In this document: one piece after another, positions 60,867 to 63,847 of the stretch | Position numbering within the stretch: the first letter of the stretch is position 1 | Layout: every line of letters starts with the position of its first letter | Source of the DNA: a virus | Taxonomy: Duplodnaviria; Heunggongvirae; Uroviricota; Caudoviricetes | DNA: 64,000 bases | Virus record (IMG/VR): IMGVR_UViG_3300032318_002198 | Reading direction: 5' to 3' (one strand) | Translations under genes and position numbers: made by a program | The notes under the pieces: generated by a model | Told to the model about the DNA's origin: nothing | The model's input: the letters and a program-made list of their open reading frames with translations, nothing else | The model's database searches: none

Positions 60867-60895
60867 AAAATAGCCACCGCAGTGGCTATTTTTTT
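60867..60895 (+). terminator. Intrinsic terminator
   Basis: AAAATAGCCAC-CGCA-GTGGCTATTTTTTT. Confidence 0.85.
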
Positions 60896-60909
60896 CATTA
60901 AATACATAT

Positions 60910-61551
60910 ATGGGCAGCAAAAATCTTGACGGAAAAATTGTAAAACAGGCACACGCCACACAACGTTTTACAGAAGAAGATTTAGAAAATCTAACTAAAT
61001 GCATGGATCCAATTAATGGTCCACATTTCTTTCTTGAAAACTTTTTCTATATACAACATCCTGTTAAAGGAAGGATGAAGTATCAGCCGTTTGAATATCA
61101 ACGCAGGCTAATAGATAGTTATCATCAACATAGATTTAATGTAAATCTGTTAGGACGTCAGTTAGGAAAAACCACAACAGCATCTGGCTATCTATTATGG
61201 TATGCAATGTTTATACCGGATAGTACAATTCTTATAGCAGCACACAAATATACCGGTGCTAAGGAAATTATGCAACGTATTCGTTATGCATACGAAATGT
61301 GTCCTGATAATATTAGAGCAGGTTGTACAAGTTATAATAAAGAAAGTATAGAATTTGAAAACGGTAGTCGTATAGTTGCACAAACAACAACTGAAACAAC
61401 CGGACGGGGTATGTCCTTGTCACTATTATATTGTTTAGACGGAGAAACGTCATTCGTTAAGGTAAGAAATAAAAAAACCCTAATTGAAGAAGAAATTTCT
61501 CTCACCGAATTATATACAAGACTGTATAATCCTGTTAAAATTATCGAGTGA
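60910..61551 (+). CDS. terL: Terminase large subunit N-fragment (174 aa) fused to split N-intein (39 aa, 61432-61548)
   Basis: PFEYQ, GRQLGKTT Walker A, GRGMSLSLLY then CLDGETSFV intein block A. Confidence 0.92.
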   Translation: MGSKNLDGKIVKQAHATQRFTEEDLENLTKCMDPINGPHFFLENFFYIQHPVKGRMKYQPFEYQRRLIDSYHQHRFNVNLLGRQLGKTTTASGYLLWYAMFIPDSTILIAAHKYTGAKEIMQRIRYAYEMCPDNIRAGCTSYNKESIEFENGSRIVAQTTTETTGRGMSLSLLYCLDGETSFVKVRNKKTLIEEEISLTELYTRLYNPVKIIE

Positions 61552-61578
61552 CGAATTTGCTTTCGTATAAATAGCCGC

Positions 61579-62469
61579 ATGAATACTAAATTAACTCAAT
61601 TCATTAAAAGAAATCAGGTGCGAAATGCACACTTATATCAACCTGGATTAACACCGGGGTATGATTATGTGGTTTGCCCGGTCAGTAATCAAAGAATGAG
61701 CATGATAAAATCTTCTTATATAGAAAAGGTGTTAGGGCTAAGAGTAGATCAATATGATCAATTATATCCTGGTGCTAAGTCTGTATGCTCTAAAAGAAGC
61801 GAAAATATTAAAACTGGATTAAAACAAATTGATCCAAATACAGGTCTAACAAAATATCAAATTTCTCAAAAAAAAGCCAAACAACTTTTATCAACTCCGG
61901 ATCAAAATGGGATAACTGGTTATCAAAAGAAAGGTCAAAAGACTCGAAATACACATATGAGTAAAATTGATCAATTTGGTAGAAATGGATATTCTCAACT
62001 AGCATCCAGGGCAATTATCAAAGGAAATAATACAAAAGCCATTAAAGGAATAATTTCCTTAAATAAGGATGTATTTAAAAGATATAAAACAATTGTTTTA
62101 TATTTAACGGAAAAACACAGAAAAAAAATAACTGTTGGGTATGTTACGGGGTTAGCAGGAAAGGAAAATGCATGGCATATTGATCATAAATTTTCAATTC
62201 TAAAAGGTTATCAACAAAAAGTTAGTCCTTTTATAATTGGACATTTGTATAATTTAGAAATGGTGCCATGGAAAGAAAACATATCAAAACATTCAAAATG
62301 TAGCATAGATTTAAAAGAATTATTATTAAAATGTGATTACAATTTAAATCAATCAAATATTGAATTCAATAAAATTATTCAGTTAATCAACGAAGATATT
62401 AAAAATAGTATTCCGCCAAATGCTGCTTATTTAATAGAAAGATACAATGGAACAAATTTATTGCCCTAA
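61579..62469 (+). mobile_element. Free-standing HNH-type endonuclease between the split terL halves
   Basis: WHIDHKFS...HLYNLEMVPWKENISKH; own TATAAATA at 61566-61573. Confidence 0.78.
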
Positions 62470-63847
62470 CACCGATTACGAAATTTTGACACCAAATGGG
62501 TGGGAAGATTTTGAAGGAATATTTTTAAATAAAAACGCAAATAAAAAATCTAAAAAAATATTGTTTTCAAACAATACATTTATTACGGCAACAAACGAAC
62601 ACAAATTTTTTAAAGATAAAAAAGAAAGTATGGTAGACACATTAAATATCGGAGATTTTTTAGATTCAGAAGACGGGCCTTTAGAAATTACTGATATTAT
62701 TGAAACAACTCTTGAAGATACCTATGAAATTTTTAATGCAACTAACCATGTAATATTTGTAAATAAGATTAATTCGCACCAGTGCGATGAATTTGCGTTC
62801 GTAGCACCAAATATTGCATCCGAATTCTGGACTTCAATATCGCCCACTTTGGCAACAGGTGGTAAAGCAATTATAACCAGCACTCCGAATAGCGACGAAG
62901 ATCAATTTGCACAAATCTGGAAAGAAGCTAATAAGAGATTTGATGAGCATGGAAATACTACTGAAGTTGGACAAAATGGATTCTTTCCGTTCAGTGCTAA
63001 ATGGAATGAACATCCCGACCGCGACGAAGCTTGGGCCAATACAGAACGTAGTCGTATCGGCGACGAAAGATTTCGCCGAGAACATGATATTGAATTCTTA
63101 GTTTTTGATGAAACTTTAATTAGTTCAATAAAATTGGCCGAATTGAAAGGTCAAGAACCTATTATGAAAATGGGTCAATGCCGTTGGTATAAAAAAATTA
63201 ATCCAAAAAATACCTATATTATTGCTTTGGATCCAAGTTTAGGTACCGGAGGTGACCCAGCAGCAATACAGGTTATAGAATTACCTACTTTCGATCAAGT
63301 TGCAGAATGGACTCACAATCTAACACCTGTTCAAGGGCAAGTTAGAATTTTAAGAGACATTTGCAATTATATTAAAGACGAAGCTGCGAGAAAGAAATCT
63401 GACGTTTCTCTCTACTATAGTATCGAAAACAATACGGTTGGCGAAGCAGCATTAGTTGCAATGAGCGAAATAGGCGAGGAAAGCGTACATGGTTTATTTT
63501 TAAGTGAACCAATTAAAAAAGGACATGCCAGACGTTTTAGAAAAGGATTCAATACAACTCATTCTAGCAAAATTGCTATATGCGCAAAATTAAAACATTT
63601 AATTGAATCAGATAGAATGAAATTAAATTCTAAACAATTAATAAGTGAACTTAAAACATATGTTGCAAAAGGAATAAGTTTTGCAGGTAAGGGTGACATG
63701 AACGATGATTTAGTTAGTGCTATTCTATTAGCCCTGAGAATGATCATGATATTACAAGAATGGGATCCAGCAGTTTATGATAAACTTAGAGAAGAAATGC
63801 AGGACGAATGGATCATGCCTATGCCGATTTATATTAACAGCTTCTAA
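62447..63847 (+). CDS. terL: Split C-intein (112 aa, 62447-62782) fused to terminase large subunit C-fragment (354 aa)
   Basis: ILTPNGW, block B TNEHKF, block F DTYEI, block G NSHQ|C; then DEFAFV Walker B, ITSTPN, LDPSLGTGGD, DDLV. Confidence 0.92.
   Translation: MEQIYCPNTDYEILTPNGWEDFEGIFLNKNANKKSKKILFSNNTFITATNEHKFFKDKKESMVDTLNIGDFLDSEDGPLEITDIIETTLEDTYEIFNATNHVIFVNKINSHQCDEFAFVAPNIASEFWTSISPTLATGGKAIITSTPNSDEDQFAQIWKEANKRFDEHGNTTEVGQNGFFPFSAKWNEHPDRDEAWANTERSRIGDERFRREHDIEFLVFDETLISSIKLAELKGQEPIMKMGQCRWYKKINPKNTYIIALDPSLGTGGDPAAIQVIELPTFDQVAEWTHNLTPVQGQVRILRDICNYIKDEAARKKSDVSLYYSIENNTVGEAALVAMSEIGEESVHGLFLSEPIKKGHARRFRKGFNTTHSSKIAICAKLKHLIESDRMKLNSKQLISELKTYVAKGISFAGKGDMNDDLVSAILLALRMIMILQEWDPAVYDKLREEMQDEWIMPMPIYINSF

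Follow-up and report, generated by a model that had tools for sequence, protein, structure and literature searches.

Atypically split inteins, in which a short N-terminal part (IntN) is paired with a long C-terminal part (IntC), are known from the large terminase subunit TerL. The IntNs of AceL-TerL and GOS-TerL consist of 25 and 37 amino acid (aa) residues and their IntCs of 104 and 115, respectively (PMC11766414). A terminase locus described earlier was also atypically split, with an unusually long C part of 122 residues (Dassa 2009, PMC2677866). In the fractured genes of the latter study, each half of a host gene carries one half of a split intein, and the two halves, both on one strand, flank a free-standing endonuclease gene (PMC2677866). 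A similar arrangement was found at positions 60910-63847 of a 64,000-nt stretch of DNA (hereafter the window) from the IMG/VR record IMGVR_UViG_3300032318_002198. This region is filled by three plus-strand open reading frames (ORFs): terL-N, a gene for a 296-aa endonuclease-like protein and terL-C. We read it as a mobile "fractured gene" cassette in an uncultured giant phage of the PA5oct-like group, where it occupies the essential gene terL, and the full account, in which splicing, homing and an operator would all take part, is given a probability of roughly 0.8.

Similar to AceL-TerL, GOS-TerL and the Cat intein, the intein of this locus resides in TerL, is followed by a cysteine (Cys+1) and has a short IntN with block A only (39 residues, compared to 25-37). 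Like those three and the locus of Dassa 2009, it has a long IntC with blocks B, F and G (112 residues, compared to 104-122). Different from AceL-TerL, GOS-TerL and Cat, however, it ends with Gln instead of Asn, its block F contains Glu (E94) instead of Asp, and it is only ~25-30% identical to them. Its insertion site is probably also different, because the C-extein of Cat starts with C-E and relatives with SHN/CEF (a slash marks a splice junction) sit at a second TerL site (RREx/.../CEFxxDETL).

The endonucleases of the fractured genes are GIY-YIG or Vsr-like, whereas the one found here belongs to a His-Me/HNH-like family for which there is no Pfam model. In addition, a mimic of the target site overlies the putative endonuclease promoter of this locus, which is not described for those genes (PMC2677866). 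HNH genes had been predicted to be able to fracture genes (Dassa, London, Stoddard, Schueler-Furman, Pietrokovski 2009, PMC2677866). The PolB intein of MIJ3, a phage of the same PA5oct-like group, is also split with an HNH gene between its halves, but its host gene is another one, its split point is canonical and it ends with Asn (PMC6892783). Thus, this locus differs from the known fractured TerL class in the Gln end, probably the Walker B site, the HNH-like endonuclease family and the conserved target mimic, and not in principle.

Anatomy of the divided terL gene and its intein

The terL-N ORF (60910-61551) encodes 213 residues. Its N-extein (60910-61431) comprises TerL residues 1-174, which include the Walker A motif GRQLGKT and end with TGRGMSLSLLY, the hydrophobic strand of Walker B. 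IntN (61432-61548, stop TGA at 61549-61551) follows with 39 residues, CLDGETSFV...KIIE, of which the nucleophile Cys1 is encoded by TGT at 61432-61434. The terL-C ORF (62447-63847) encodes 466 residues. Its start overlaps the 3' end of the endonuclease-like gene by 23 nt and is preceded by a purine-rich stretch. IntC (62447-62782) has its own ATG and consists of 112 residues with blocks B (T49, H52), F (E94, H101) and G (S110-H111-Q112). The codon of Gln112 is CAG (62780-62782) and that of Cys+1 is TGC (62783-62785), after which DEFAFV is encoded. The C-extein (62783-63847) comprises 354 residues, Cys+1 and 353 more, which include the Walker B D-E, the remaining part of the ATPase and an RNaseH-like nuclease domain. 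While terL-N matched Terminase_6N of Pfam (1e-7) and terminase PHROGs, terL-C matched Terminase_6C. The long ORFs throughout the window read normally under table 11, by which an alternative genetic code was ruled out.

An earlier note on this DNA had described a terL split into two genes with an endonuclease gene between them, a short-N/long-C intein with block B in its C part, and a joined TerL of 528 residues. All three ORFs are present, IntN and IntC are 39 and 112 residues long with TNEH in IntC, and the exteins add up to 174 + 354 = 528 residues, both being colinear with a contiguous TerL.

That contiguous TerL is from phage Paride. Among cultured phages, the PA5oct-like jumbo phages of Pseudomonas are the most closely related, and their TerL is encoded by one gene. 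Both halves aligned with the TerL of Paride (..SLVY/LDEMAFV..) in a colinear and abutting manner, only the insert being extra. In the alignment with T4 gp17 (PDB 3EZK), ..MIY-IDE.., with the Walker B Asp and the catalytic Glu, was found at the junction. From these two alignments, the insert is placed one residue before the Walker B D-E, in agreement with the fracture at Walker B that had been proposed. The residue after the junction is Cys here, in place of the residue of the orthologues. Intein-less alleles, of 54 loci (53 from IMG/VR and the Paride record), read ..SLLY-[A/C/L]-DEFAFV.. at this place. Removal of the insert therefore restores a conserved Walker B motif, and orthologues without the insert exist, as expected for a class 1 intein.

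A phmmer search of PDB with IntC found one structure, 6DSL_B, the "consensus engineered intein CatC" (E 1.1e-6, residues 10-114 aligned). The alignment extended to the C-terminal S-H-x-Cys, with Q112 opposite the position of the catalytic Asn, which is Ala in that crystal. The AlphaFold2 (AF2) model of IntC, built from 18 natural sequences, had a predicted local distance difference test (pLDDT) score of 81. In a Foldseek search with this model, 6DSL_B also ranked first (E 3.2e-4, template modelling score 0.60) and the remaining listed matches were inteins or intein-like HINT domains. As both its sequence and its predicted fold match Cat, IntC is placed among the atypically split TerL inteins already known, which bears out the suggested kinship to AceL-TerL and GOS-TerL. 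IntN, a query too short for this purpose, gave no meaningful match in PDB.

The catalytic residues were highly conserved. T49 and H52 of block B (T49-N-E-H52), H101, S110, H111, Q112 and C113 were invariant in 18/18 IntC sequences, and Met1 was also invariant in the aligned IntC sequences. Cys1 followed Tyr (Y/CLDG) in 20/20 loci read, including L031 and L032, and the T/S-H of block B was kept in nearly all distant relatives. In block G, His111 and Cys+1 are present and the terminal Asn is replaced by Gln112. Given that the Gln-ended variant is documented as able to splice (PMC4031507), this replacement does not exclude membership in class 1.

Contiguous versions of the same intein were found in P0079, P0020, P0022, P0077 and the loci L031 and L032. 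When these were aligned with both halves, the break fell in a variable linker after ~38 residues, between blocks A and B. Moreover, two loci (L061 and L062) contain a split version without the homing endonuclease gene (HEG), in which the stop of IntN overlaps the start of IntC as ATGA. As both contiguous and HEG-less split versions exist, the halves are parts of one splicing domain. In 13 loci, IntN and IntC were encoded in different ORFs, each of which had a start of its own. Judged from these sequences, IntN and IntC together are a naturally and atypically split class 1 intein (HINT) of the TerL kind.

The endonuclease-like gene and the target-site copy

The free-standing gene between the halves (61579-62469) is an intact ORF and encodes 296 residues with a helical N-terminal part, likely a DNA-binding region, and a C-terminal His-Me/HNH-like domain at about residues 160-240. 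Homologues were numerous, with 168 matches at E <= 0.001. The 120 that were listed had lengths of 245-403 residues (nearly all 291-316), identities of 51-80% and, in all but one, a query coverage of at least 96%. No Pfam family was found for the protein or for 42 of its homologues, and the listed homologues were without Pfam annotation. D202, H203, N225 and N234 were invariant in 42 sequences (a D-H...N...N motif), and residues 161-265 matched PHROG 5104 (function unknown, 3.7e-18) and PHROG 1035, "endonuclease VII" (7.2e-5). The model of the protein (pLDDT 89.7) contained a beta-beta-alpha element at residues 199-234, with strands at 199-203 and 226-230 and a helix at 231-234. Foldseek with the whole model found nothing at E <= 0.001, and its weak matches were enriched in Cas9 HNH domains and colicin DNases. 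A wide VIA search found the GVE2 HNH structure 5H0O as a weak match over residues 160-238 (Z 3.9, root-mean-square deviation 3.6, 69 residues), the rest being coiled-coil noise. No GIY-YIG or Vsr-like match was found. The name HNH that the earlier note gave to this gene is thus moderately supported, by the endonuclease VII match (7e-5), the invariant D-H...N...N and the weak fold match, with no match in Pfam. An HNH-like homing endonuclease is the best reading of the sequence and the model, with moderate support.

An 18-nt copy of the target site, GACGAATTTGCTTTCGTA (61550-61567), was found at the stop of IntN. It is out of frame and identical at 16/18 positions to the DEFAFV codons of the C-extein (62786-62803). 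At up to 3 mismatches, 2 matches to it were observed in the window, compared to 0.08 expected. This mimic runs into the octamer TATAAATA (61566-61573), which is the T4 late-promoter consensus and which lies 5 nt before the ATG of the endonuclease-like gene. Together they form a module (61547-61573) that can be regarded as a candidate operator and late promoter. The module was found in 13/13 distinct endonuclease-bearing loci, always with a spacer of 4-5 nt to the ATG. The consensus of the mimic was identical to that of the intein-less alleles (GAC GAG TTT GCA TTC GT), and the mimic was the most conserved stretch of the region, with windowed identities of 0.83-0.86 compared to 0.5-0.7 elsewhere. 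At the would-be synonymous "third positions", its identity was 0.745, compared to 0.485 for the real coding copy. The mimic was absent from the HEG-less loci and degenerate (GAGTTTGAATTTGCATAAATA) in L068.

The octamer TATAAATA occurs six times in the window (7164, 8945, 19572, 38709, 54606 and 61566), each time on the plus strand and 5-82 nt upstream of a plus-strand gene. It is under-represented, with 6 copies compared to 13 expected on both strands. Its counts and placement are consistent with a late promoter of the T4 type. A literature search for late promoters of PA5oct gave nothing usable. Upstream of terL-N, an 11-pair stem followed by a T run (60867-60892, plus strand) resembles a terminator that closes the upstream gene, and terL-N starts 18 nt downstream of it. 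The terL-N start region (60893-60912) has no Shine-Dalgarno-like sequence, and its ATG is preceded by ATTAAATA and 5 nt (CATAT), a spacing equal to the 5 nt between TATAAATA and the endonuclease ATG. These sequence features hint at late transcripts that may be leaderless or have very short leaders. An RNA hairpin that would hide the endonuclease start was ruled out, because 61520-61620 folds at -8.2 kcal/mol with z = +1.26, no better than shuffles; a short stem that lies in the DEFAFV codons comes with the codons themselves.

The operator of I-TevI resembles its homing site and overlaps a late promoter (Edgell et al., 2004, reviewed in PMC2988022). Similar to I-TevI, a homing-site-like sequence overlaps the putative late promoter directly upstream of the endonuclease gene in this locus, with identities of 15/20 in T4 and 16/18 here. 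Different from I-TevI, which is intron-encoded and GIY-YIG, the gene found here is HNH-like and lies inside a split intein. By this comparison, the mimic over TATAAATA is a candidate I-TevI-like operator.

The copy at 61547-61573 could instead be a mere scar of the arrival of the endonuclease gene, or a part of the promoter, with no operator function. This is a serious alternative and quite possible, albeit not the reading that we favor. In locus L078, the IntN ORF reads in frame through the copy and terminates with it (..SGDEFAFV, then stop), and the contiguous intein of P0020 keeps an in-frame remnant (..LSDEFDLE..) in its linker, as leftover sequence would. A neutral scar should decay, however, and the conservation of this copy exceeds that of the true coding copy even at would-be synonymous positions. 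Moreover, its position relative to TATAAATA and the ATG is fixed in 13 loci, despite identities of only 50-65% between their proteins, and it has degenerated in L068, where another ORF replaced the endonuclease gene. The stronger proposal is that the mimic is a true operator by which the endonuclease throttles its own late transcription, and possibly that of terL-C too, and that Gln and the Glu of block F are a tuned chemistry instead of a handicap. This combination is regarded as doubtful.

Distribution among relatives and the glutamine C-terminus

The TerL genes in IMG/VR that are closest to this one (75-90% identity over both exteins) were almost all intein-less (..SLLY-A-DEFAFV.., some with Cys), and the exteins of most intein-bearing loci were only ~60% identical to this TerL. 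A few close relatives carried the intein; in P0004, for instance, the identity of the exteins was 88% compared to only 69% for IntC. On this sequence evidence, the distribution is patchy, like that of a mobile element subject to gain and loss. The relatives that have the intein carry it in three forms, contiguous, split with no endonuclease gene, and split with one; in most intein-bearing loci, the two intein halves enclose a homologue of the endonuclease. In one locus (L068:3460-4000), the endonuclease gene is replaced by an unrelated ORF of ~125 residues and of no obvious family. The contiguous form of P0020, given the in-frame remnant of the mimic in its linker, looks like a split intein that was re-fused after loss of the endonuclease gene.

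Further inteins and TerL-like segments were also observed. A second TerL intein site (RREx/C...N/CEFxxDETL) was occupied in P0079, P0020, P0022, P0002, P0006 and P0043, by a contiguous intein in some relatives and by a second atypically split intein, whose IntN of ~31 residues ends the ORF, in others. P0022 and P0077 contained a third intein near Walker A (..GILSHN/T..). Given the extra split-intein sites, three pieces must be joined into TerL in some relatives. A second, distant TerL-like fragment (~30-35% identical, ATPase part only) was found immediately upstream of the fractured gene in L038:1641-2471, L039:328-1158 and L075:1-552. In L006:1493-2992, L008:330-1829 and L014:1481-2980, a distant (~35-36%) TerL-N-like match was found ~730-800 nt upstream of the N-extein match, which covered only residues 88-174; this may be another insertion or an upstream TerL-like fragment as in L038. 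The terL region of L074:740-5401 was very complex: several segments with weak likeness to IntC and TerL-N were found upstream of the fractured gene, and IntN was followed by GC-rich filler.

The Gln end was examined in relatives of IntC plus TerL-C, of which 206 were found in independent assemblies; 120 of these were listed and 119 had readable junctions. The end was SHQ/C in 118 of the 119 and SHN/C in one. Both CAA and CAG were used as the Gln codon, from which it follows that the amino acid itself is under selection. As the architecture recurs in independent assemblies, an assembly error is excluded. The His-Gln end before Cys+1 noticed in the single sequence is thus a feature of the listed relatives at large and not an effect of chance or of assembly. 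The combination of this end with the atypical split had been called unusual, which holds for the accessible literature but not for nature, where it is common, with hundreds of relatives.

An exhaustive profile-free search yielded 322 clusters at 50% identity. The split and contiguous domains at the Walker B site ended with H-Q in 25 representatives and with K-N in 27, and also with H-N, S-N and, in a few, K/R/F-Q. Many distant relatives at this site have no penultimate His and end with T-K-N/C or S-N/C, which represents another non-canonical block G. On a weakly resolved tree of 83 Walker B-site domains, from which the last three residues were omitted, the Q/N label required 9 changes, compared to 22.9 for shuffled labels, and 0 of 500 shuffles gave a number as low. 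Of the 27 Gln forms, 22 fell in one group of 29 that includes this phage, and a second clade held four. On this tree, weakly resolved as it is, the Gln end is an inherited trait of a large phage group. The acidic residue of block F is Glu (E94) here and mostly Asp in the broader family. Strict coupling of this Glu with the terminal Gln was ruled out by the observed combinations (D/Q 18, E/Q 11 and E/N 10); the coupling between them is loose.

Inteins ending with Gln splice by Gln cyclisation, which is slow in Pol II inteins and efficient in an iridovirus ribonucleotide reductase (RNR) intein (PMC4031507). Similar to the Gln-ended inteins of Pyrococcus abyssi and Methanoculleus marisnigri Pol II and of Chilo iridescent virus RNR, the intein of this locus has a terminal Gln and presumably cyclises it in step 3. 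Different from those inteins, which are contiguous and have other hosts (PMC4031507), it is naturally split, and its Gln is fixed across a large phage group. No description of a naturally split Gln-ended intein was found in the accessible literature, a scope to which the primary reports on AceL, GOS and Cat do not belong.

Proposed mechanism and its implications

From the anatomy, homology, conservation and patchy distribution described above, we infer the splicing chemistry, the cleavage target and the function of the operator as follows. TerL would be made as two polypeptides, TerL(1-174)-IntN and IntC-TerL(175-528), of which IntN would provide Cys1 and the first strands and IntC the remainder of the HINT fold. 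After association of IntN and IntC, a thioester would form at Cys1 and the N-extein would be transferred to Cys+1. Gln112 would then cyclise like the Asn of ordinary inteins, by which the intein is freed, and an S-to-N shift would yield the 528-aa TerL (..SLLY-C-DEFAFV..) with a completed Walker B motif. The most likely role of the endonuclease is to cut, in mixed infections, those terL alleles that lack the intein, around their Walker B codons, after which repair would copy in the whole cassette. The endonuclease most likely also binds the mimic over TATAAATA and limits its own late transcription as I-TevI does.

Several points weigh against this account. The endonuclease has no Pfam match and its structural matches are weak, and the late-promoter use of TATAAATA is argued from T4 and from the statistics of the window. 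The 4-5 nt between TATAAATA and the ATG leave no room for a ribosome-binding site; thus, a transcript from TATAAATA would either have no leader or be of use to terL-C alone. Rather than a site for protein binding, the mimic could be a conserved element upstream of the promoter. In addition, Gln-ended inteins can splice slowly, as in Pab Pol II (PMC4031507).

An alternative to splicing is that the TerL halves form a non-covalent two-subunit enzyme, in which the intein halves serve only as association domains, comparable to the NrdA of phage Aeh1 that is split by mobE. T4-like phages do have genes that are split without splicing (Dassa 2009, PMC2677866), and a terminal Gln cyclises more poorly in some inteins (PMC4031507). 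However, Cys1, T-x-x-H, the penultimate His, the terminal Gln and Cys+1 are invariant or nearly so across >100 relatives, and the contiguous forms of the same intein must splice for a working Walker B. Moreover, the break is inside the Walker B strand, where an insert of 151 residues would be hard to tolerate. The two-subunit enzyme is therefore considered improbable.

Recoding appears more improbable still. One contiguous intein with a nested endonuclease would be produced by read-through of the TGA and a +1 shift into IntC. In this locus, terL-N and the endonuclease ORF do share a frame with a single TGA between them, and the endonuclease-IntC overlap of 20-26 nt is conserved with IntC always in the +1 frame. 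The in-frame relation was kept in only 3/13 loci, however, and a read-through fusion of terL-N with the endonuclease was rejected as unlikely on this ground; spacers of 26, 27, 34 and 7 nt were found, and the stop was TAA in three loci. In addition, every one of the ORFs starts with a conserved ATG, that of IntC encodes an invariant Met1 and has a purine-rich stretch 7-9 nt upstream of it, HEG-less split loci with the ATGA stop/start overlap exist, and the first junction showed no significant RNA structure (z = +1.26). The least probable reading is that the genome is defective and the locus a decaying intein or an artefact of assembly. Metagenome assemblies can hold errors, and indels could account for the stop and the frame change, but many independent assemblies share this architecture, their ORFs are intact and the Gln codon varies synonymously.

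Splicing of a split, Gln-ended TerL intein thus remains the preferred reading. The AceL, GOS and Cat inteins are used for protein labelling because their IntN is short enough to be obtained by synthesis. New and possibly orthogonal parts for protein chemistry would be available from a large natural family that shares this break but has a Gln end. This family is also a natural test of how Gln cyclisation becomes efficient, including the change from Asp to Glu in block F. Moreover, all stages of the proposed route of gene breaking are present in one alignable set, from contiguous mini-inteins through HEG-less split forms to split forms with the gene, together with one case in which the gene was replaced and one probable re-fusion. 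If the doubtful combination of a true operator and a tuned Gln chemistry were correct, an I-TevI-style self-limiting circuit would have evolved independently in a split-intein cassette, and this family of natural split inteins would be the first to splice by cyclisation of a glutamine. As the conserved mimic suggests, operator mimicry as a means of self-limitation is found in homing endonucleases beyond the T4 intron enzymes.

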